Positions 2,694 to 19,063 of a stretch of DNA of 64,000 nucleotides are shown piece by piece (positions within the stretch are counted from its first letter, which is position 1; each line of letters opens with the position of its first letter). A program made the translations under genes and the position numbers. This DNA is from Candidatus Doudnabacteria bacterium (lineage in GTDB: Bacteria > Patescibacteriota > Doudnabacteria > UBA920). The stretch spans positions 16,235 through 80,234 of the forward strand of contig PLYC01000021.1 of assembly GCA_003151625.1 (NCBI GenBank), read 5' to 3'. A model generated the notes under the pieces. That model did not search any database and was not told where the DNA came from. It worked only from the letters and a program-made list of their open reading frames with translations.

Positions 2694-5630
2694 TTATTGC
2701 ATCCGTGAATCCCCGGAAGTCATAGGGGAAAGAATGTACAGGCGGAAGTCATAGGAGTTGGCCGGGACCACAAATGAGGCTTGGCCGCCATTGTTTAGGA
2801 AAGTGTTCCAGTCGGGAACCGGAATTAGGCCGCTTTGGTGGACAAAATAAATGGTTTGGCCGCTTTTTATCCAGCTGCCCCAGGGGTGATGGACTGCCGT
2901 TGTTGATACGGTATAACCGGAGTCGGCCAAACCTGAATTACCAACCGCCACGACATTGCCAAATTTATATCCTAATCCCAAAAATACGGAGGCACTCGTA
3001 AAAGCAGTTTTGGTATTTTTATAAACTATATACACGGTTGAGCCTTCGGAAATTAGCTGGCCGTTTGCGTAAGCGCTGGCGCCAAGGACGCTGCTTGAAC
3101 CTCCCGGATACTGCAAGCTACCGCCGCCGTTGTTATTGTAAGGATAACCGCTGTTATAAGAATAGCCACCAACGGTAACATATAAACTCTGGCAGGAGTT
3201 GGCGCTGTTTTGGCAAATTTGCAGGGTGGAACTGCCGTTGCTAATTCCGTAAATAGTTATCACGCTACCGTTAAAGCTGGCGGAAATAACGCCGGGGTTG
3301 CTGTTGGAAGAAATATAATAGCCATATCCGCCGTTGCCGGAAACGTTCACCGTGGCGCTCTGGCCGACATTTAAACCTAAAGATGATTGGCTTAATATAA
3401 TATTATTGCCGCCGTAGCCATAACCATTAACGCTAACATATACGCTGGCGCACTGGCTAGAACTTGAGCCGCACAATACTATTGTGCTGCTGCCAGAACT
3501 TTGCCCATAAAAAGTAGCCTGGTTGACCGAAACACTTACCGAAACCACACCGGAATTGCTGTTGGAAGAAACATAAACAGAGGGCACATTGTAAGCCGAA
3601 ATAATCATGCTTTGACCCTGGCTTAAACTTAAACTAGTCTGGCTTAAAGACAGACTGCCACCGTAATTATTAGAAGATCCGCCACCGACTGTTACATAAA
3701 GCGTGCCGCAAAATCCCAAAGCCGTACTGCAAACAGAAATATTGCTGGAACCGTTTTGATTGGCGGTTAAATTTAATACCGTGCCCGAAATATTCGCGGA
3801 CACAACATAAGGACTGCTGTTGGAAGAAATATAATATGCGCTGGAATTATTTAAGTAAGATGTGGCATAGGAACTGCTATTAACAGAAACCGCCAGGCTT
3901 TGCCCAACATAAAGAGTAGGATTAGCCGGACTAAACCACAGGTTGGTGTTGGCTCCCAAAACCCCGCTGACCGTAACATAAAGGGTCGCGCAGGAAGAAC
4001 TATTAGAACTTTGGCAAACTAAAACATTGGTGTTACCGGCGCTTAAAGCGTTAACATATATGCTGCTGCCGGACATGCTGGCCGATGCAACACCGGAGTT
4101 GGAATTGCTGGAAATATAATAACTTCCGTAAGAAATGTTGTTGTTGTAAACGGCAACTGTCGCGCTTTGTCCGGAATTCAAAGACAGGCTGGAAGGACTA
4201 AAAGAAATTGTCCCCGAACTTCCGTTGCCGCCAACCGTAACATATAAGCTTACACAGGAAGAAATATTACTCGCGCAAATGCTTATAGTGCTGGAGCCAA
4301 CAGCCAAACCGTAAAGGCTAATGTTGTTTCCAGAGATGCTGGCCGATGCAACGCTGGAATTGCCATTGTTGGAAATATAAATGCTGTTGCCGTTATTGTA
4401 AGCCGTGACCACAGAAGTTTGGCCAATATTTAAGCTGACGCTGGTCTGGCTTAAAGAAAAAGAACCAATACCGCTGCCGCCGCCAACAGTTACATACAAG
4501 TAACCGCAAGTAGAATTACTCTGGCATACCGTAATTGTGCTGCTGCCAGTGCTCCCCGCCTGCAAATAAAGGGAACTGCCGGTAATGCTGGCAGACACGA
4601 TGCTCGAATTGCTGTTGTTGGAAATGTAAAGAGAAGTTCCAAAATACGAGGCAGAAATAAAGACAGTGGAGCTTTGGCCAACCGATAAATTTACAGAGCT
4701 GGGACTAAAAGTTATTGAGCCGGAACTGCTGCCGCCGCCAACTGTCACATACAAGGTTGCGCACTGGCTGGAACTATTTTGGCAAATACTAATGTTGGTT
4801 GAACCGTTACTAATTCCGTTAACATAAACCGTATTGCCCGAAACGCTGGCGCCGGCCACCGAAGAGTTGCTGTTGCCGGAAATGTAAGCTGAAGATCCGC
4901 TGTTGTATCCATAAACGGTAACCGTGGAGCTTTGGCCAACCGTTAAAGATAAACTAGTCTGGCTCAAAGAAAGACTGCCGGAACCGCATCCGTTGTAGCA
5001 ACTGCCGCCGTTGACTGTGGCATATAAAGTGGCGCAAGAGCTGCTACTGTTGGAACAAACACTAATGTTTGTTGAGCCGCTAACCAATCCATAAACGTTT
5101 ACCTGATTACCGGAAGCGGTCGCGGAAGCGACGCTCGGATTAGAATTGCTGGAAACGTAAAAACTATTACTCTGACCATAAACAGGATAGCTTGCGGTTA
5201 CAGAAGCGGTTTGGCCGACGTTTAAGCTTAGGCTGGTCTGACTCAAAGTTAATCCGCCCACATTGCATCCACTGTAACCGCAGCCGTTATTATTATAGTT
5301 ATTGCCGTTATTGTATCCGTAATTGTTGCTATAGACCTGCTGGCCGCCAACTGTGGCGTTAATTTGCGAACCCACGGCAGAATCAACCATAGTCATAAAA
5401 TTTCCGCTGTAATCCGTGAACCCGCTGACGCTAGTCAGTAAACTGCTGCCGGAAGGCGTGTAATTTATAGCCACTGCGGCGTTAGGCTGGCCGCCGCTAA
5501 TGGAAACTGTCGTGCTGTTTCCGGAGGAATAAACGCTTAATGTTGGGCTATAGGCCAAAACCGAACCGGCAAAACCCATAAAAAAGCTTATAAATAAAGC
5601 AAAAATTAAGCTTTTTGATAATGTCTTCAT
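2694..5630 (-). CDS. Large secreted surface protein with about nine tandem bacterial Ig-like (Big_2-like) repeats; Ser/Gly/Asn-rich
   Basis: N-terminal signal peptide 'MKTLSKSLIFALFISFFMGFAGSVLA'. Units of about 90 aa repeat on the pattern 'LSLSQTSLSLNVGQ[ST]A[ST]VTA...SSN.NSSVASA...G...V.G...GS.NISVC..SSS.CATLYVTVGGG', which resembles Big_2 domains. The DNA shows the same ~270-bp periodicity. Confidence 0.7.
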   Translation of the reverse strand: MKTLSKSLIFALFISFFMGFAGSVLAYSPTLSVYSSGNSTTVSISGGQPNAAVAINYTPSGSSLLTSVSGFTDYSGNFMTMVDSAVGSQINATVGGQQVYSNNYGYNNGNNYNNNGCGYSGCNVGGLTLSQTSLSLNVGQTASVTASYPVYGQSNSFYVSSNSNPSVASATASGNQVNVYGLVSGSTNISVCSNSSSSCATLYATVNGGSCYNGCGSGSLSLSQTSLSLTVGQSSTVTVYGYNSGSSAYISGNSNSSVAGASVSGNTVYVNGISNGSTNISICQNSSSQCATLYVTVGGGSSSGSITFSPSSVNLSVGQSSTVFISASYFGTSLYISNNSNSSIVSASITGSSLYLQAGSTGSSTITVCQSNSTCGYLYVTVGGGSGIGSFSLSQTSVSLNIGQTSVVTAYNNGNSIYISNNGNSSVASASISGNNISLYGLAVGSSTISICASNISSCVSLYVTVGGNGSSGTISFSPSSLSLNSGQSATVAVYNNNISYGSYYISSNSNSGVASASMSGSSIYVNALSAGNTNVLVCQSSNSSSCATLYVTVSGVLGANTNLWFSPANPTLYVGQSLAVSVNSSSYATSYLNNSSAYYISSNSSPYVVSANISGTVLNLTANQNGSSNISVCSTALGFCGTLYVTVGGGSSNNYGGSLSLSQTSLSLSQGQSMIISAYNVPSVYVSSNSNSGVVSVSVSVNQATFYGQSSGSSTIVLCGSSSSQCASVYVSVNGYGYGGNNIILSQSSLGLNVGQSATVNVSGNGGYGYYISSNSNPGVISASFNGSVITIYGISNGSSTLQICQNSANSCQSLYVTVGGYSYNSGYPYNNNGGGSLQYPGGSSSVLGASAYANGQLISEGSTVYIVYKNTKTAFTSASVFLGLGYKFGNVVAVGNSGLADSGYTVSTTAVHHPWGSWIKSGQTIYFVHQSGLIPVPDWNTFLNNGGQASFVVPANSYDFRLYILSPMTSGDSRMQ

Positions 5631-5819: not shown

Positions 5820-7049
5820 TTATTCCATTTTATCTATAATCCTTTGCGCGGCTAAAACATAAGCGGCAGTTCTAAAAGTACAGTTGTATTTATTTTTCTG
5901 TTCCAAAACATCGGCAAACGCCAATTTAATTTGTTTGGATAATTTTTCCAGCACCTGTTCCTTGTTCCAGCTTTCACCCTTCATGTTCTGATACCACTCA
6001 TAGTAAGAGACGCACACTCCGCCGCTGTTGGCCAAAATGTCGGGAATAACAGCCACGCCATTTTTGGCAAAAATTATATCCGCCTCCGGTGTTGTTGGCC
6101 CGTTGGCCATCTCCACTATTAATTTGGCTTTAACTTTTTCGGCATTGTCTTTGGTTAAAACATTTTCCAACGCCGCCGGCACCAAAACATCGACAGGCAA
6201 TTCCAACAGCTGTTCATTGGAAATATTTTTTGCTCCCGGAAAATCTTTTAACGCTCCGCTGGATTTTTTGTAAGCCAGCACCTTTTCAAATCCTAAACCT
6301 TCAGGGTTATAAATCCCGCCTTTGGAATCCGATAACGCGACAATCTTGTAACCGATTTTTTCCGCCGCTTGGGCAAAAAAAGTAGAAACGTTGCCGAAAC
6401 CCTGAATGGCAACACTGGCATCTTTTGCCAAACCGACTACTTTGCTTTTTACTACTTCTTCAAAAACGTAAACACCGCCAAAACCGGTAGCCTCTTCCCT
6501 TCCCTGACTGCCGCCGTTGTCCAAAGACTTGCCGGTGAAAGTTGCTTTGGAGCTGTTAAAAGAGCGTTTTTGGTATTCGTCGAGCATCCAGCCCATAATT
6601 TGTCCGGTAGTGTTTACGTCCGGGGCGGGCACGTCTGTTTCCGGACCGATTATGGGATAAATCTTTTTTACGTAACCGCGGCTTAAACGTTCAAGTTCAG
6701 CCGCCGATAATTCTTTTGGGTTTACAATAATGCCGCCCTTGCCGCCGCCAAACGGCACGTTAACCACGGCGTTTTTAAAAGACATCCAAAAACTTAAAGC
6801 GCGCACCTCGTCAAGATTCACGTCCTGATGAAAGCGAATGCCCCCCTTGTAGGGCCCGCGGGCGTTATTGTGCTGGCTTCTGAAACCCGTAAAAATTTTT
6901 TGCGAACCATTATCCATTTTTAACGGAATGGCGACTTCCACGTAACGATCCGGATTTTTTAACTGTTCTACTTTGTCTTTATCCAAGTGGGCTGTTTCTG
7001 CGGCTTGCTGCAGCTGGGATTTGGCCGTCTCAAAAGGGTTTATTGTCAT
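5820..7049 (-). CDS. gdhA: NAD(P)-dependent glutamate dehydrogenase
   Basis: Catalytic Lys loop 'KGGIRFHQDVNLDEVRALSFWMSFKNAVVNVPFGGGKGG' and a Rossmann motif 'GFGNVS'. Confidence 0.9.
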   Translation of the reverse strand: MTINPFETAKSQLQQAAETAHLDKDKVEQLKNPDRYVEVAIPLKMDNGSQKIFTGFRSQHNNARGPYKGGIRFHQDVNLDEVRALSFWMSFKNAVVNVPFGGGKGGIIVNPKELSAAELERLSRGYVKKIYPIIGPETDVPAPDVNTTGQIMGWMLDEYQKRSFNSSKATFTGKSLDNGGSQGREEATGFGGVYVFEEVVKSKVVGLAKDASVAIQGFGNVSTFFAQAAEKIGYKIVALSDSKGGIYNPEGLGFEKVLAYKKSSGALKDFPGAKNISNEQLLELPVDVLVPAALENVLTKDNAEKVKAKLIVEMANGPTTPEADIIFAKNGVAVIPDILANSGGVCVSYYEWYQNMKGESWNKEQVLEKLSKQIKLAFADVLEQKNKYNCTFRTAAYVLAAQRIIDKME

Positions 7050-7076: not shown

Positions 7077-8021
7077 TTAAATTGCTTTTTCGTTTTCCAA
7101 CACCGGGCTGTTAAAACTGCCGCCAGTCAAAACCAAAGCTGTTACCGAAGCCAATAATACCAGAGCTCCAACAATTTGCCAAGCGTTTAAAGTAATGCCC
7201 AAAAATTTCCAGTTGACAACAGTCAGCGCCAAAGGATATCCAAGTTCCATTAAAGTGGCAACCGAAGCTTTGGTGTGGCGCAGACCGTAGTAATATAGCC
7301 AAAGAGAGAAAAATCCGGTAACCAGGGCAATAATAATAACGTTACGCCAAAACAGCGGGGTCATTTGGCCAAATTGAAAATGATAGCCTATGACCACATA
7401 AACAGTTAAAAATATAAGCCCAAAAACGAAGCGCATCCCGTTAACCAGCTGTACATCAATATTTGACATTAAAGATCGCCCGACCACGGTACCGCCGGCC
7501 CATAAAATTGCCGCGCCAACTGCTAGAGCCGGTCCAAATAAATGCAAATGTCCACCGGAGCTCCAAAGTCCGGCCGGATTAGCCCAGCCAAACGTGACCA
7601 AATAGGCGCCGAGCAATGCAGGGACGGCAAACAGCCAGAATCTTGGCGAAAGTTTTTCCTTTAAAAAAATTACGGCCAGTGAAATGGCAAATATGGGTTG
7701 TAGTTTTTGTAGCAACGCGGCAATGGTAAAATTATAATTCATGGCCACCGCGGCCTGTACATAAAGTAGGGCGCCCAAGGCCGACGCTCCGGCGCCAATG
7801 TAAAGAAGCCCCGCCCACTGTTTTAAGGTCAAATTTTTAAACCCCGCGCGCTTGGCTAAAAGCCCCGGCATGCTGACAAGGCTGTTAAGCAGGTGCTCTA
7901 AAAACCCGACAAACGGCACCGAAAGGCCGCCCAAAAGCAGCGGTTCCCGAAACGGCGTATCGCCCGCCCACAGCAGTGATGAAAGAAAAACAATTAACGG
8001 TCCGCGCTTTTTTGTATCCAT
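7077..8021 (-). CDS. EamA/DMT-superfamily-like transporter (10-TM permease)
   Basis: 314 aa, with two internally similar halves of five hydrophobic helices each. No catalytic motif. Confidence 0.5.
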   Translation of the reverse strand: MDTKKRGPLIVFLSSLLWAGDTPFREPLLLGGLSVPFVGFLEHLLNSLVSMPGLLAKRAGFKNLTLKQWAGLLYIGAGASALGALLYVQAAVAMNYNFTIAALLQKLQPIFAISLAVIFLKEKLSPRFWLFAVPALLGAYLVTFGWANPAGLWSSGGHLHLFGPALAVGAAILWAGGTVVGRSLMSNIDVQLVNGMRFVFGLIFLTVYVVIGYHFQFGQMTPLFWRNVIIIALVTGFFSLWLYYYGLRHTKASVATLMELGYPLALTVVNWKFLGITLNAWQIVGALVLLASVTALVLTGGSFNSPVLENEKAI

Positions 8022-8026
8022 TGCAA

Positions 8027-8494
8027 TTATTTTTCCAATTTCTTAATATTTTTAATATCTTTTTTTATCTGCGCTTTTAACTCAATCTCCGATGAAAACT
8101 TTTTAAACGGCCTAATAAACTTCCCTAATGTTATTACAATTTTTTTGCCGTACAGGTTTCCTTTAAAACCTATCAGATGAGCTTCAAGTTTGGGCAGATG
8201 ATGTTTATCGAGCGGACCAATTACGATCGCGGCCACATACATTTTGCGATGTAGCGGCGGCCACCCAACTTCGCCAAGGCTTCGTCGGGCAGGCTGGCCG
8301 CCATTATTTTGGAGGCCGATGGCCTCCGCTACAATCACACCTCCCGCATATACCCCCAGCCTAACCTTTAACCCCCGTCTGACATAATCTCTCCTATCCA
8401 AATTTGCCGTAGGAAATCCTAGTTTTTTGCCATAGCTGTCACCATGAACCACCCGGCCTGATACTTGAAAATTTCTGCTTGGTAATTTATTCAT
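8027..8494 (-). CDS. Riboflavin kinase, a monofunctional RibF C-terminal-domain type
   Basis: Motifs 'GRVVHGDSYGKKLGFPTANL' and 'GVYA', and a PTAN flavokinase signature. The start overlaps the trxB stop by 8 bp. Confidence 0.72.
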   Translation of the reverse strand: MNKLPSRNFQVSGRVVHGDSYGKKLGFPTANLDRRDYVRRGLKVRLGVYAGGVIVAEAIGLQNNGGQPARRSLGEVGWPPLHRKMYVAAIVIGPLDKHHLPKLEAHLIGFKGNLYGKKIVITLGKFIRPFKKFSSEIELKAQIKKDIKNIKKLEK

Positions 8495-9416
8495 GTTCTG
8501 TTAAATATTTTTCTACATCTAGCGCGGCCATGCATCCCATACCGGCAGCCGAAACTGCCTGCCTATAGCGCGGATCGTTAACGTCTCCGGCCACAAACAC
8601 CCCCTCTATATTAGTGTGGGTGTGGTTCTTTACAACGATATAACCTTTTTGGTCGGTTTCTATGCCGGCAGCTGCAAAAATTTTCGCGGCTGGAGTATGG
8701 CCAATGGCCACAAACAAACCCTGGACAGGCAAAACCGATTCGTGACCGGATTGATTATCCTTAATCTTTAATCCCTCTACCGATTTTTCCCCCAAGACTT
8801 CCAAAATGGTAGCGTCGCCTATAAATTTAATTTTCGAATTATCCTGCGCCCTTTTGAGCATAATTTTACTGGCTCTAAATTCCGGACGACGATGAACAAT
8901 AGTCACAGTATTGGCAAACTTGGTTAAAAAAGTCGCTTCTTCCATAGCGCTGTCCCCGCCGCCGGCCACAATGATATCTTTTCCCTTAAAGAAAAATCCG
9001 TCGCAGGTCGCGCATGCCGAAACGCCTTTGCCGCGTAGTTTCTGCTCGCTGGGCAAATTTAACCAGTTAGCGTCGGCTCCGGTGGCAATAATTATTGTTT
9101 TTGCAAGATATTCGGCTTTATCGGTAGTGATTTTAAACGGCTGATTTTTAAAATCCGCGGCCGTAACATTTTCCGGCAAAATCTCCGTGCCAAACTTTTT
9201 TACCTGCTTCATCATATTTTCCATTAACTCCGGACCCATAATCCCTTCCGGAAAACCTGGAAAATTTTCCACTTCCGTGGTGTCCATTAGCTGGCCGCCG
9301 GGTTTTAAACCAGCCAATACCAAAGGCTTAAGTTCCGCCCTGGCCGCGTATAACGCGGCAGTCAGTCCGGCCGGGCCAGAACCTATAATTATTGTATTGA
9401 AAATCTGTTTGTCCAT
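8487..9416 (-). CDS. trxB: Thioredoxin-disulfide reductase
   Basis: FAD motif 'IIIGSGPAGLTAALYAAR', redox-active 'CATCDGFF' and NADPH motif 'VAGGGDSAME'. Confidence 0.92.
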   Translation of the reverse strand: MDKQIFNTIIIGSGPAGLTAALYAARAELKPLVLAGLKPGGQLMDTTEVENFPGFPEGIMGPELMENMMKQVKKFGTEILPENVTAADFKNQPFKITTDKAEYLAKTIIIATGADANWLNLPSEQKLRGKGVSACATCDGFFFKGKDIIVAGGGDSAMEEATFLTKFANTVTIVHRRPEFRASKIMLKRAQDNSKIKFIGDATILEVLGEKSVEGLKIKDNQSGHESVLPVQGLFVAIGHTPAAKIFAAAGIETDQKGYIVVKNHTHTNIEGVFVAGDVNDPRYRQAVSAAGMGCMAALDVEKYLTEHE

Positions 9417-9422
9417 AAAAAA

Positions 9423-9749
9423 TTAATTGGTTTTTGAATATAAATTAATTAATTCTGCAATGGCCTGCTTGCGCTTGCTGGTATTTTTGCTGTGCACCGC
9501 ATCCCAGGCGCAAATACCCAAATGGCCGCTTAAAATCATTTGGTTGATTTTTCGCAAAGCTTCGATGACCGCGTGATTTTGGTTAATAATATCCAAGCAA
9601 TAGGCTTCCGTTTCCACCATTTTACTGACCGCTTTTAAATGACCCTCCGCGTAATGCAGCCTGTTTAAAATATCTTTCCTATTTTTGTCGGATTTTTGCA
9701 CAGTTGGCATAATCTTATACTGATAGGACTTACGCGCTTGGTCAAGCAC
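9423..9749 (-). CDS. CsoR/RcnR/FrmR-family (DUF156) metal-sensing transcriptional repressor, CsoR-type x-C-H-C ligand pattern
   Basis: Family pattern 'LNRLHYAEGHLKAVSKMVETEAYCLDIINQ...ALRKINQMILSGHLGIC'. The Cys in helix 2 plus His-x3-Cys in helix 3 match the Cu-CsoR ligand set. Confidence 0.6.
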   Translation of the reverse strand: MLDQARKSYQYKIMPTVQKSDKNRKDILNRLHYAEGHLKAVSKMVETEAYCLDIINQNHAVIEALRKINQMILSGHLGICAWDAVHSKNTSKRKQAIAELINLYSKTN

Positions 9750-9906
9750 AAGGCATTTTCCGAGGATGTTTGGAGACGTAGTTAATCTACGACGACAAAC
9801 ACCGCAGGAAAATAACGAAGTGATTGACCAAGCCCCTGTGGTTGAGGCAACAATAAATAGATTTTTATCTTTTTTGCCTCAAACGCGTAAGTCCTAACTT
9901 ATTAAA

Positions 9907-9921
9907 CCCCCCTGTGGGGGG
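9907..9921. promoter_or_regulatory. C6-TGT-G6 palindrome; candidate CsoR/RcnR-family operator
   Basis: ccccccTGTgggggg lies about 160 bp upstream of the CsoR-like start. Operators of this family are known to be G/C-tract palindromes, for example the RcnR TACT-G6-N-AGTA site. Confidence 0.35.
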
Positions 9922-10115
9922 TAACAAATTAAGTATAGGCCGGGACTTGACAACTGTCAAATAAAAGTTTATACTTGTCGGTCACCCGGCAGGGCATGCC
10001 CGCCTTGGCTAGACGCCAAGTCGAGACAGGTCGATAGCCACTCTGGGTGGTGGAAAAGTTCTTTAACATCGGAACCCAAAAGGTTCCAAAGAAAACGGAG
10101 GGGAAAGGAACTCCC

Positions 10116-10379
10116 ATGTTAACGTTCCTGATTGTAGTAGCGGGATTACTGGTGGTGCTGGCCGCGCGCGAAAGCAAAAAATTGCGCAAAGCGCTGTCCA
10201 AGCATAAAACCAAAACCCGTCTACTGCCGCAAACCGTTAGTTTGCTGGTCATTTGTGCCCAGGTATCTGAACTGCTCAAGGTACTTGACCACGTGACCCT
10301 GACTAACGTCGCCACAACATTGTTTCTGTTGGCGATATTGGCGGCCGGCAAATCAGGAACAGAAAGCGAGCTGTATTAA
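10116..10379 (+). CDS. Small hypothetical membrane protein (about 88 aa)
   Basis: A GGAGG RBS, 'ggaggggaaaggaactcccATG'. Two hydrophobic helices. A hairpin terminator follows at 10448-10482. Confidence 0.3.
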   Translation: MLTFLIVVAGLLVVLAARESKKLRKALSKHKTKTRLLPQTVSLLVICAQVSELLKVLDHVTLTNVATTLFLLAILAAGKSGTESELY

Positions 10380-10447
10380 TTTCCCGAGTGAATTTAGCCT
10401 CGGACGTTTATTCGGCTGGAAAAGAGTTCCTGATAAAGGATAAGCAA

Positions 10448-10482
10448 GGACCCGGTTGTATAACAACAACCGGGTCTTTCTA
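10448..10482 (+). terminator. Hairpin terminator
   Basis: acccggttg-tataacaa-caaccgggt followed by ctttct. Confidence 0.5.
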
Positions 10483-10517
10483 ATTTAGGACGCGTAAGTC
10501 CTATTATTATCTATAAT

Positions 10518-11603
10518 TTATTGCAGTTGCCCCAAAACCACAGGGATATCTATATTAGAGCCGTTGCGCAGAACTTTTAAAGTCACCTGACTGCCGGCCT
10601 TGAATTTGCCGACAACATCATCTAAAGATTCATTCTGGTTTAAAGTAGTAGTGTTAACCCCGGTAATTATGTCCCCTGCTAAAATTCCCGCGACATCTGC
10701 CGGAGAGCCCTGCTTGATATCGGTAATAAGAGCGCCGTTTTGTACTGTCAAATTCTTGATAATTTGCACGGCGGGGCTAATGCTCACAAACATGACGCCC
10801 AAAAACGGACGGGAAACTTTACCAAAAGTTTTTAACTGCAAAACCGCATCCTTAATGGTATTTATTGATATGGCAAACCCCAAACCCGAGCCTTCGGTAT
10901 CTATGAGCGTGTTCATACCCACAACCTGGCCAGCCAAATTAATTAGCGGGCCTCCGGAATTGCCCGGATTAATAGCCGCGTCGGTCTGAATTAAATTGTG
11001 AAGCCTGGAAGAATCGTCGCTTACATCAACCGCCCGTCCCAAACCCGAAATTACTCCGCGGGTCACTGTATATTCATACTTGCCCAAAGAATTGCCAATG
11101 GCAAACACGCTTTGCCCGGTTTCCAAGCTGTCGGAATCCCCTAAAACGGCCGGGATCAAATTGTTAGCGCTAATTTGAAGTAACGCAATATCATCAAATT
11201 TATCCAAATCCAAAATTTTGGCCGAATATTCACTGCCATCGCTAAGCACTACCGTGTAACTCATATTTGGATCTTCTACTACGTGGTTGTTGCTTACAAT
11301 AAGCCCGTCTTTTTCCAACACAAAACCCGTTCCCAAAACTTCATTCGGCGTGGCGCTGATGCTCGGTGTGGAACTTGAATCCGGAGTGCTGGTGGCCTGA
11401 TTTTCAATGCCAATAATATTCACAACGGAGGCCTTGGCGGTGCGCACTGCTAAAATTCCCTGTTGTTCATCGGTTAAAGCCACCCCCGAGGAGTTAGGTT
11501 TAATCGGATTAAAGTTAATTGTCTGGCTTAATGCACCCGCTGCCGACATCACGGCCGCCGTAATAATTATTGTAATAATATATGATTGATATTTTTTGGG
11601 CAT
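10518..11603 (-). CDS. htrA: HtrA/DegP-family periplasmic serine protease with a C-terminal PDZ domain
   Basis: Catalytic triad context: 'NNHVV' (His), 'DIALL' (Asp) and 'GNSGGPLINLAGQVVGMNT' (Ser). An N-terminal TM anchor and a PDZ-like tail. Confidence 0.85.
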   Translation of the reverse strand: MPKKYQSYIITIIITAAVMSAAGALSQTINFNPIKPNSSGVALTDEQQGILAVRTAKASVVNIIGIENQATSTPDSSSTPSISATPNEVLGTGFVLEKDGLIVSNNHVVEDPNMSYTVVLSDGSEYSAKILDLDKFDDIALLQISANNLIPAVLGDSDSLETGQSVFAIGNSLGKYEYTVTRGVISGLGRAVDVSDDSSRLHNLIQTDAAINPGNSGGPLINLAGQVVGMNTLIDTEGSGLGFAISINTIKDAVLQLKTFGKVSRPFLGVMFVSISPAVQIIKNLTVQNGALITDIKQGSPADVAGILAGDIITGVNTTTLNQNESLDDVVGKFKAGSQVTLKVLRNGSNIDIPVVLGQLQ

Positions 11604-13117: not shown

Positions 13118-13127
13118 GGATCAAATT

Positions 13128-13152
13128 AGGACTTACGCAGTGCGTAAGTCCT
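13128..13152. repeat. Perfect 11-bp inverted repeat with a 1-bp spacer, GGACTTACGCA-g-TGCGTAAGTCC. It belongs to a recurrent TAGGACTTACGC 12-mer family.
   Basis: Direct read. The same 12-mer occurs at about 9724, 9886 (reverse orientation) and 10489 (reverse orientation). Confidence 0.6.
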
Positions 13153-13162
13153 ACAAATTTTA

Positions 13163-13193: not shown

Positions 13194-13264
13194 ATTACCT
13201 AAAACATTTTTTCATCGGCGCTCGGGCTGTAAATTTGCGGAACCGGTATGTTGTTCAGACGCAT

Positions 13265-13465
13265 ATAAAGGTTCCTCGGAGCTTAAGCTCTCGAGGTATT
13301 AGTGCAATGAGCTGCCTGCATTTCGCAGTCCGCCCGCCTAAGGCGGGCGGACGAAGTATTGAACCTGTATTAGCTCCTCGCCCATTCGACAGCGCTCAGG
13401 GCGACCCTGAGTTATACCGAACGGATCGGCTCGCCCCGCCAGGGCGGGATCTCACTCTACGTCGC
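13265..13465 (+). repeat. MITE-like interspersed repeat, copy 1 (about 200 bp)
   Basis: Shares the blocks 'ataaaggttcctcggag', 'ctgcatttcgcagtccgcc', 'taaggcgg', 'acgaagtattgaacctgtatta' and 'ccccgccagggcggg...ctctacgtcgc' with the reverse complements of 14932-15024 and 20181-20343. Confidence 0.65.
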
Positions 13466-13767
13466 AAATAAAAAAAATAATTCGACAATCGAGAACGACC
13501 GCCCCAACGATTAACCAAGCCTCCGACAAAATTAACGGAATTAAAAGATAAAATCGAATATAGCCATAAATTGGAATCAATTTTTACTAATGGCGGCACT
13601 GGACGAAAATATACGGGAAGTATGACAACTTTTTTATTTTCTTTCTTAAACCACAATTTTATAACCGATTCTGAAACTATTCCTATCTAATAAGCGTAAC
13701 ATTAGCACCTAGGACAATTAAGCGAACTATATTATTTACTATCATTATATTGAAAGGGAAAACAAGA

Positions 13768-17279: not shown

Positions 17280-19063
17280 TTATTCCTGCGAGTTGGCGGA
17301 GCGATAACGGCGGGAGAAGGAGGCTAGGGTGGTGATTATGAGGATGGAGGCGAGGATGGCCATTAGTTCGGGGAAGGAGAGGGTGGAGCTGGTAGTGGTG
17401 GCGGAGGCTGATGAAATTGCCGGAATCATCCAAGTGGCCCAGCGGGCTTGGATGTAGGTTATTATGCAGACCAGAAAAATTAGGCCGAGACTGTGTAATA
17501 TAGTAAATCGGAAAAGGGTGCCTTCTTGGCCGGGGAGGTGGGCAGAGGCTGTGGCTACGGCTATGCTTTGGGGCGAAATCATTTTTGCCGCCACTCCCCC
17601 GCTGGAGTTGGCGGCAACGCTAAGCACCGGGCTAATGCCCAGAGAGTGCGCGGTTTGGGATTGAATGTTACTAAATAATGCGTTGGACGATGTATCACTC
17701 CCGGTAATAAATACGCCAAACCAACCGAGTAAGGGAGAGAGGAAGGGAAAGAACGCGCCGGTTACGGTAAGCGCGTTGCCAATGGCCGTGGACATGCCGG
17801 AATAGTTGGCCACGTAAGCAAAACCAACAATGGAGCCTATGGTTAATAACGGCTTGGATAATTCTTTCAATGTTTGCCAGGTAACTTCCCAAAAATCTTT
17901 CCACGCCAGATGGAGCATAAGCGCGGTTAAAATTGTGGCCAGTAAAATTGCCGTACCGGCCGCGCCCAGCCAGGCAAAGGTGTAATTAATATTTAAAGTT
18001 ATGCCGTTGCTAATTATTGCGTGATAAATATTTCCAAAAGGAATTAAGAGCGTAACTTGGCCGAGCAGTTGCTGAATACCGGTAATGCCCCAGTTGCCCA
18101 CAAAGACAATGAGTAAAATAAACGGAGTCCAGGCGCGGACAAGTTCGCTTGCGGTATGTTTGGCGCGGATGTTTGGTACGGCGTTGCCCTGCACCGGAGT
18201 CAGACGACTGGTGCAGGGTTGATTAACCCTCTCCTTTGGAAACCGCCAAATTTCTTTAGGATGCCAAATCCGCAAAAATAGCAAAAGACAAATTATAGAA
18301 ACAATCGCGGACAGTACATCGGGCAATGTCGGTCCAAGATAGCTTGCTGTCAGAAACATCGTTAAAGCATACGAAGCGCCGGTCACAAAAATAGCCGGCC
18401 AAATTTGTTTGGCGCCCTTCCATCCCGAGACAACCAACACCAGCCATAGCGGAATAATAAAGGCAATAAACGGTAACTGGTGCGCTATCATTTTGCTTAA
18501 AATATTCGGGTCTATATTGGTTAAATGCCCGGCCGTAATAACCGCAATGCCAATGCCGCCAAAGGCCACTGGCGCGGTGTTGGCAATAAGGCAAATACCG
18601 GCCGCGTACAAAGGCTCAAAACCAAGGCCTACCAGCATACCGGCGGTAATGGCCACGGGCGCGCCAAACCCGGCCGCGCCTTCCAAAAAAGTCCCAAAAC
18701 AAAACCCGATTAACAAAGCCTGCAGGCGCCGGTCGGTAGTAACCGACTCAATACTGTCTCGCACTACATTAAAACTTCCCGTGCGGACGCTAACGTTATA
18801 AAGCAGTACGGCGTTAAAAACAATCCAACCAATAGGAAACAAACCGTTTAAAAACCCATATAGGCCGGACATAACGCCCAGCCCCACGGGCATAGTGAAT
18901 ATGGTAACCGCGATAATTAATCCCAGTAAGAGCGTCAGGAGTGTGGCAATATGGCCGGCAACTTTGCGGCTAAGCAGTAAGGCGAACAAAAAAATAATCG
19001 GAACCGAGGCGGCAAAGGCGGAAAACATTACGCTATGCAATGGGTTGGAAGTTTGTGTCCACA
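17280..19063 (-). CDS. lctP: L-lactate permease, LctP family (the ORF extends to 19124; the likely start is at MWTQTS)
   Basis: LctP hallmark helices 'LLTLLLGLIIAVTIFTMPV' and 'FGTFLEGAAGFGAPVAITAGMLVGLGFEPLYAAGICLIANTAPVAFGGIGIAV', with more than 12 TM segments. Noticeably GC-richer than the neighbours by eye. Confidence 0.85.

Follow-up and report, generated by a model that had tools for sequence, protein, structure and literature searches.

The region described here separates htrA from csoR in a stretch of 64,000 nucleotides (nt) of Candidatus Doudnabacteria bacterium (contig PLYC01000021.1), which is called the window throughout and whose first letter is position 1. It holds a candidate operator for a CsoR-family repressor, two predicted promoters set back to back, an open reading frame (ORF) for a small membrane protein, and a 173-nt structured element between the operator and the csoR start codon. 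The same region, 9724-10504, had been read from its far side in an initial annotation. The gene csoR and the genes that flank it all lie on the minus strand. Genes and control sites are arranged as follows.

7077-8021, minus strand: EamA transporter, operon member.
8027-8494, minus strand: monofunctional riboflavin kinase (ribF-like, flavokinase only), operon member.
8487-9416, minus strand: trxB, operon member (TIGR01292, 404 bits against a cutoff of 343).
9423-9712, minus strand: csoR (PF02583), 95 amino acids (aa) from the ATG at 9712, with ligands C38-H63-C67, plus Y37 and E86, aligned to the CsoR of Mycobacterium tuberculosis.
9906-9922, no strand assigned: candidate operator A-CCCCCC-TGT-GGGGGG-T, resembling type-2 CsoR sites and placed at about +4 to +18 relative to the predicted csoR transcription start.
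9932-9960, minus strand: predicted csoR promoter, with -35 box TTGACA (9960-9955), 17-nt spacer and -10 box TATACT (9937-9932), agreeing with 11 of 12 consensus positions.
9947-9975, plus strand: predicted divergent promoter of the small ORF, TTGACA-17-TATACT, with -35 box at 9947-9952 and -10 box at 9970-9975, also 11 of 12 consensus positions.
9976-10115, plus strand: predicted 5' leader of the small-ORF mRNA, from about 9982, with a short 5' GC hairpin (GUCGG-UCAC-CCGGC) and a 32-nt insertion.
10116-10379, plus strand: small ORF for an 87-aa membrane protein of no known family, with Shine-Dalgarno sequence GGAGGGG/AAGGA upstream.
10449-10476, no single strand: bidirectional intrinsic terminator common to the small ORF (plus strand) and htrA (minus strand).
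10518-11603, minus strand: htrA, flanking the csoR intergenic region.

The initial annotation had singled out a perfect C6-TGT-G6 palindrome upstream of csoR as the kind of site that CsoR repressors bind. The palindrome, CCCCCCTGTGGGGGG, is present exactly at 9907-9921 and is the sole such site in the window. By itself the match is weak as evidence, since the pattern turns up at least once, at one mismatch or fewer, in 14 of 100 shuffled sequences. The operator call is carried by conservation. Loci with csoR were gathered from genome contigs, metagenome contigs and exact-protein look-ups, yielding 30 loci from the candidate phyla radiation (CPR), and the 700 nt upstream of csoR were scanned in each. 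Exactly one A-C5-6-N3-G5-6-T site was found in all 30, placed 6-11 nt past the -10 box and mostly 9-10 nt past it. The -35 box is TTGACA in 26 of the 30. Spacers of 17 nt (19 loci) and 18 nt (8 loci) together account for 27 of the 29 loci with a callable spacer. The central triplet varies freely between two tracts that, like the A and T beside them, do not change, a pattern that is the signature of a protein-binding site. In form the site agrees with type-2 CsoR operators, whose two G/C tracts stand a short distance apart between TA and AT flanks; in Streptomyces the consensus is ATATACCCCTNAGGGGTATAT (PMC3902906). On this comparison, the proposal that the palindrome is a conserved CsoR-family repressor-binding site is well supported.

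The near-consensus sigma-70 promoter TTGACA-17-TATACT is predicted to fire leftwards into the csoR operon. The palindrome begins 10 nt past the -10 box of this promoter, so a repressor bound to it would sit on the predicted transcription start; relative to the plus-strand promoter it lies about 26 nt before the -35 box. Two tetramers would occupy the operator if it works as type-2 CsoR sites do, and the repressor would block its own operon until an inducer released it.

The window CsoR scores 72.8 bits against PF02583 (cutoff 22.8), has the CsoR proteins of M. tuberculosis and Geobacillus as its best relatives in the PDB, and has its closest named relatives in metagenome-assembled genomes of Candidatus Doudnabacteria. 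In the alignment, its residues C38, H63, C67, Y37 and E86 correspond to C36, H61, C65, Y35 and E81 of the M. tuberculosis protein. Both Cys residues, the Tyr and the Glu are invariant among 32 homologues; the His is kept in about 90% or more, with Tyr in its place in two. The x-C-H-C pattern is a signature of Cu(I) sensors (PMC8643695). Family membership, ligands and operator thus agree with the Cu(I)-sensing CsoR subgroup, and the gene neighbourhood does not: neither copA nor copZ occurs in the csoR neighbourhood, in the window or in any CPR locus examined. The earlier remark that no efflux ATPase or copper chaperone accompanies the regulator therefore extends well beyond this one genome.

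What does accompany csoR is trxB, in 30 of 30 CPR loci, and in the window only 6 nt separate the csoR stop from the trxB start. The flavokinase and EamA genes usually come next. The initial annotation had named trxB and a ribF-like gene downstream, and both are there, the second as a flavokinase only. One locus (L039, 4092-6489) has the order csoR, trxB, flavokinase, riboflavin synthase (Lum_binding, ribE), 6,7-dimethyl-8-ribityllumazine synthase (ribH), EamA, and the two added genes strengthen the flavin theme of the regulon. For the EamA protein, a role as a riboflavin-type transporter is possible. In a sister strain represented by loci L011 and L038, an extra gene of 137 aa, absent from the window, stands between trxB and the flavokinase gene (L038 11233-11667, corresponding to about 8450-8500 of the window).

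The makeup of this operon, nearly constant across the loci and joined by ribE and ribH in L039, raises the possibility that the regulator is a thiol, persulfide or oxidant sensor whose Cys pair switches on thioredoxin reductase and flavin salvage, and is not a copper sensor. The missing copA and copZ fit that idea, as does the stricter conservation of the two Cys residues than of the His, and CsoR-family members with the same dithiol pair do sense persulfides (PMC8643695). The ligand set argues the other way, since the protein has the Y-position His together with the Tyr that precedes the first Cys and a Glu81 equivalent, a combination that marks Cu(I) sensors, whereas CstR proteins lack this His (PMC8643695). 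No cst, sqr or rhodanese gene was found near csoR in the loci examined, and a gene for a copper pump could lie in a part of the genome outside these 64 kb. We regard the redox-sensor alternative as tentative. Judged by its ligands, the repressor most likely has Cu(I) as its inducer, with a thiol-reactive signal as the alternative.

The -35 boxes of the two predicted promoters overlap back to back (TTGACAacTGTCAA) and form a 14-bp palindrome, TTGACA-NN-TGTCAA, at 9947-9960. Homologues of the small ORF were found by tblastn at the matching divergent position in 12 loci, every one of which has the palindromic -35 pair; a few loci with no ORF found by tblastn have it too, and most ORF-less loci do not. 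In loci L012 and L017 the ORF is shortened to about 16 codons and the -35 palindrome is degenerate (TTGACAgttgCCAA). The second consensus promoter would drive the 87-aa protein through a GC-rich leader. A hydrophobic helix stands at the N terminus of this protein and the sequence KSGTExEL at its C terminus; it also contains a linker that is basic or rich in His, and an SELLK..(E/D)H motif. No Pfam or NCBIfam model matches it above cutoff. An ORF with its own ribosome-binding site and terminator had been proposed at this place, rightly on both counts. The stem of the terminator differs wholly from that of its L011 counterpart (1918-1950), within flanks that are about 99% identical; the entire hairpin has been replaced and not mutated.

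The GC-rich stretch itself had been taken for an extended folded structure, a reading that does not survive closer inspection. The leader segment 9980-10125 folds with z = -1.38, no better than shuffles, and 9930-9975 is occupied by the two predicted promoters. Because the ccggg...cacccgg repeat spans these divergent promoters, its halves would not meet in one transcript. The other repeats that had been noted, gggcatgccc and cttggc/gccaag, lie inside a 32-nt hairpin insertion (9999-10030) or at its junction, and this insertion is one that the window has and the sister strain lacks. The stretch is best read as two back-to-back promoters followed by the leader of the small-ORF mRNA. Leaders vary from roughly 30 to 145 nt between loci and, when read directly, have in common an AGGAGG ribosome-binding site and a 5' GC hairpin whose variants are compensatory (CCGG/CCGG, CGGG/CCCG, CAGG/CCUG, CGAG/CUCG). 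In the window (9976-9995) and in the leaders of L004, L011, L018, L019, L026 and L027 this hairpin is a GC stem of 4-5 bp with a UCMU-type loop at the predicted mRNA 5' end, where it may act as a stabilising hairpin.

On the csoR side of the operator, and at two places beyond the small ORF, lie the copies of a 13-bp repeat and the structures that they form.

9724-9736 (plus), 9884-9896 (minus) and 10491-10503 (minus): copies of TAGGACTTACGCG, as exact repeat and reverse complements.
9724-9896, minus strand (the strand predicted to be co-transcribed with csoR): three-way-junction element of 173 nt in the csoR 5' untranslated region (UTR), with helices P1, P2 and P3.
9724-9736 with 9884-9896: P1, formed from repeats of 13-17 nt.
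9842-9882: P2.
9736-9834: P3, the long hairpin.
10486-10503, no strand assigned: 18-nt hairpin TAGGAC-GCGTAA-GTCCTA, a short derivative of the P1 stem, past the htrA stop codon and strain-specific.
13127-13153, no strand assigned: stand-alone 13-1-13 palindrome TAGGACTTACGCA-g-TGCGTAAGTCCTA, made of two one-mismatch copies of TAGGACTTACGCG and resembling P1 without an interior.

The initial annotation had drawn the three exact copies together as the boundaries, and a third internal copy, of a 770-bp segment that might be a miniature inserted element. The copy at 9724-9736 is where it had been put; the reverse complements start at 9884 and 10491, not at 9886 and 10489. The segment fails on comparison with the sister strain, whose proteins are nearly those of the window (CsoR 98%, TrxB 97%, HtrA 98% and the small ORF 100% identical) and whose DNA is 92.7% identical over 18 kb. 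There the interior, with the operator, both promoters and the small ORF, is about 99% identical, and none of the flanking repeats is present, nor is the 173-nt element. Three blocks are specific to the window: the 173-nt element, the 18-nt hairpin (a 16-nt block, 10489-10504, that holds TAGGAC...GTCCTA) and the 32-nt leader hairpin. Since the sister strain has the interior without the repeats, the interior is ancestral and the repeats are separate small insertions. An origin of the whole of 9724-10504 as one inserted unit has in its favour that the 20-nt arms 9717-9736 and 10491-10510 are 90% complementary; we consider it extremely improbable, since the sister strain already refutes it, since the operator, promoters and small ORF occupy the matching place in at least 12 relatives without the repeats, and since each 13-bp repeat has a nearer pairing partner. 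The copies at 9724 and 9884 pair through 17-nt arms that are 94% complementary and are the closing helix of the 173-nt element, and the third copy belongs to the hairpin derivative; they are not the ends of a 770-bp unit. An inserted miniature element does exist here, at 173 nt.

The repeat is over-represented, with five matches to TAGGACTTACGCG at two mismatches or fewer in the window against 0.74 expected, a number that none of 100 shuffles reached. All five copies fall within 3.5 kb, and the perfect palindrome at 13127-13153 lies 10 nt past a MarR-family gene and is kept in the sister strain with one mismatch. Such clustering might suggest a half-site for a protein, for example the adjacent MarR-family regulator, in place of a part of a structural element. 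The positions speak against this: no copy lies in a promoter, the sites instead following two stop codons or lying inside a 5' UTR. The two UTR copies, 147 nt apart, form a helix of which other genomes show covarying versions (CTTATG/CATAAG, TTTCCACA/TGTGGAAA), and the sister strain has only one of the three sites. A protein half-site is accordingly judged quite improbable.

The 173-nt element lies between the operator and the csoR start codon, a position from which we infer that it would be transcribed in the csoR 5' UTR. Its predicted fold has an energy of -78 kcal/mol and z = -10 on either strand. Homologues were identified in L004, L020, L022 and L043, all of them other Doudnabacteria, the last three with a covariance model of P3, giving with the window five copies at three types of site and in both orientations. 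The L004 copy has the same position in the csoR UTR as the window copy, with P3 conserved and P1 different, and the L043 copy is placed as in L004. In L020 the element stands between a gene of 299 aa and htrA, 27 nt before the htrA ATG. In L022 it is antisense to its neighbours, beside a gene for a type IV secretion system coupling protein and downstream of clpB. The csoR UTR thus accounts for three of the five copies, and the other two stand before htrA and by the coupling-protein gene.

Comparison of the copies shows a conserved structure. In P3, 10 of 37 pairs show compensatory change and 96.6% of cells are paired, values that 0 of 500 shuffles reached. RNAalifold applied to the five full elements returned 61 pairs, of which 21 covary, 9 of 14 in P1 among them. 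The internal loops (CUU/CCU and UC/UC) are invariant in all five copies, and the apical loop is free. Identity of P3 between genomes is 77-88%, compared with 68-74% for trxB overall and 39-49% at trxB third positions; the P3 core, being more conserved than trxB DNA, is either selected or recently spread. Fold energy and counts of G-U pairs, tried as guides to a functional strand, gave a mixed answer: the antisense strand is at least as stable in four of the five copies, and although P3 read in the csoR sense has two invariant G-U pairs, the opposite strand makes up for them with G-U pairs at other places.

Searches for relatives and for signals within the element were negative. The covariance model found no further copy in about 300 kb from about 30 genomes, and full copies number one in the 64 kb of the window and none in the 20 kb of sister locus L038. 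A consensus scan detected no outward promoter or terminator inside the element. The possibility of an unannotated non-coding RNA, to be checked in Rfam, found no match there: with Rfam 15 at the gathering score the sole match in the whole window is a tRNA, and permissive searches gave nothing better than E = 0.1 in 9600-10650 and nothing on the L004, L020 and L022 copies. Weak matches to Pistol, mir-303 and NsiR1 were set aside as noise or terminator. ARAGORN reported no tRNA or tmRNA in the region. The element core CGTAGNNNNACTACGYCTCCAAANATCCTCG has 0 matches in viral contigs, a blastn search with the element in collections of phages and plasmids returned no match, and the outer-stem motifs of the L004, L020 and L022 copies do not recur elsewhere in their own loci. 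6S RNA, signal recognition particle RNA, k-turn, attC, CtsR/CIRCE boxes and a dif site were dismissed on anatomy alone, with no dedicated search for any of them. Searches of the literature for structured repeats and miniature inverted-repeat transposable elements (MITEs) in CPR bacteria, and for CsoR-trxB operons, yielded nothing pertinent.

The covariation invites the explanation that this three-way junction of about 170 nt is a functional structured RNA, either a cis-acting 5'-UTR element or a small RNA from one strand or the other, attached to stress genes. Its stems vary while its internal loops stay fixed, P3 is better conserved than trxB DNA, four of the five copies are sense to the next gene and stand 10-27 nt before its start codon, and the neighbouring genes include htrA, trxB and clpB. 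Yet most csoR loci do without the element, including that of the sister strain with its 98% identical CsoR, and one copy is antisense to its neighbours. Neither stability nor G-U content favours one strand, as is expected of a palindrome at the level of DNA; the element sequesters no ribosome-binding site or start codon and carries no terminator tail; and it has no relative in Rfam. A functional RNA is for these reasons unlikely. A bolder form of the same idea would make the element a new class of Doudnabacteria RNA at the leaders of stress operons (csoR-trxB and htrA), binding a protein or ligand, together with a CsoR-type master switch of a thioredoxin-flavin redox module in place of copper efflux. 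Selection would then act on sequence in the internal loops, which read CUU/CCU and UC/UC on one strand and AGG/AAG with tandem GA on its complement, and on structure in the three covarying helices. This combination, too, we think doubtful.

We prefer to read the region as the control region of a csoR-trxB-riboflavin kinase-EamA operon, in which an autorepressor operator is joined by a small, laterally shuffled element resembling MITEs and enterobacterial repetitive intergenic consensus (ERIC) units, and we put the probability of this at roughly 60%. The element family would consist of intergenic units conserved in structure, shuffled laterally, and gained or lost between strains. Unrelated hairpins occupy the matching position between operator and ATG in other loci: a perfect hairpin of 23 bp in L027 (about 5894-6000), and hairpins of the GTCATCCCGAGC/GTCATTCCGAGC type in L007 (about 3911-4000) and L032 (about 269-345). 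That spacer is therefore a tolerated landing place, and hairpin insertions seem to have a hotspot in the csoR leader. The element itself is most likely tolerated and not needed for csoR control, and is perhaps an mRNA-stability hairpin. Judged by the searches above, the family appears to be previously undescribed, with ERIC-type palindromic units as what it resembles.

Several points weigh against this reading. The promoters and start sites are consensus predictions. The missing copA and copZ speak against a classical copper regulon, which leaves the proposed inducer uncertain. The ends of the element (P1) are its least conserved part and the core its most conserved, the opposite of what a MITE recognised by a transposase would show. 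No target-site duplication or clean empty site is definable, the sister UTR having a different sequence of 46 nt, and the window has a single full copy in 64 kb, with none in 20 kb of the sister strain. The conservation of P3 and its invariant loops would fit a selected function as well as recent spread, and the three copies at one UTR position could reflect inheritance with repeated loss in place of mobility.

To our knowledge, transcriptional regulation in CPR bacteria (Patescibacteria) is almost unstudied. The locus offers a cleanly footprinted promoter-operator pair, with consensus sigma-70 boxes and an operator invariant over about 30 genomes. A copper-type CsoR appears here to be wired to thioredoxin reductase and flavin salvage in place of copper export, which may inform the study of redox homeostasis in minimal genomes. 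The 173-nt element adds a small, well-supported case of structure-conserved DNA or RNA that comes and goes between strains of a genome of about 1 Mb, and the presence of three strain-specific hairpin indels within 870 bp points to fast hairpin turnover in DNA that is about 99% identical. The operator is ordinary and the regulon unusual; the structured element is new, and current views are not overturned.

Other differences from the sister strain lie farther from the csoR operon. Past the MarR-family gene, 13235-13470 is a GC-rich intergenic block of hairpin modules with no Rfam match at gathering score. Its perfect hairpins at 13275-13310 and 13327-13351 are specific to the window, and L038 has one more copy of the module at about 13380-13430 (GCCCATTCGACAGCGCTCAGGGCGACCCTGAG...), placed at another locus (4994-5042). 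Between 15147 and 17150 the window has about 1.5 kb, in several blocks, that the sister strain lacks; these carry a Bro-N domain gene and small ORFs and are probably a mobile or prophage remnant. Conversely, L038 has a HicA/HicB toxin-antitoxin pair (18216-18749, corresponding to about 1861-1881 of the window) that the window lacks.

Among known systems, the regulator and its site stand closest to the type-2, autoregulated CsoR proteins of S. lividans, B. subtilis and M. tuberculosis. These likewise have operators of two G/C tracts with a short spacer and A/T (TA...TA) flanks, an operator overlapping the regulator's own promoter, and x-C-H-C ligands with a Tyr before the first Cys and a Glu81 equivalent. 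The tracts in the window are longer, as C6-N3-G6, with TAC-X13-GTA in many loci against TAC-X9-GTA in type-2 operators, and the operon has thioredoxin reductase, riboflavin kinase and EamA where classical CsoR operons have CopZ and CopA. With CstR and other persulfide-sensing repressors of the family the system shares the fold, the conserved Cys pair, G/C-tract operators and a non-metal regulon; it differs from them in keeping the Y-position His and in having no sqr, rhodanese or cst gene nearby.

Repetitive extragenic palindromes (REP and REPIN), which are mobilised by RAYT proteins and occur in high copy as hairpins of 20-40 nt with a 5' GTAG, were rejected as a match, since the element has no GTAG and only three loci in the window. 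Like classical MITEs, the element has terminal inverted repeats (17-nt arms, 94% complementary), is small and non-coding, and shows insertion polymorphism. Unlike them, it is least conserved at its termini, and these covary as the two strands of a helix; it has no definable target-site duplication, no parent insertion sequence was seen, and one full copy in 64 kb with P1 the most variable helix departs from multiple copies with ends conserved for a transposase. From ERIC, Correia/NEMIS and RUP units it differs in lacking any sequence relationship, in forming a three-way junction and not a simple hairpin, in its few copies (one full and two short derivatives in 64 kb), and in coming from a CPR lineage with a small genome, with three of five copies at one UTR position. 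The resemblance to these units is one of function and not of membership by sequence, with transcription of the element taken from the position of the predicted promoter. It is broad nonetheless: an imperfectly palindromic unit, 100-200 nt long, within transcribed intergenic DNA, found in either orientation, kept across species with compensatory changes, polymorphic in presence between strains, and accompanied by short derivatives.

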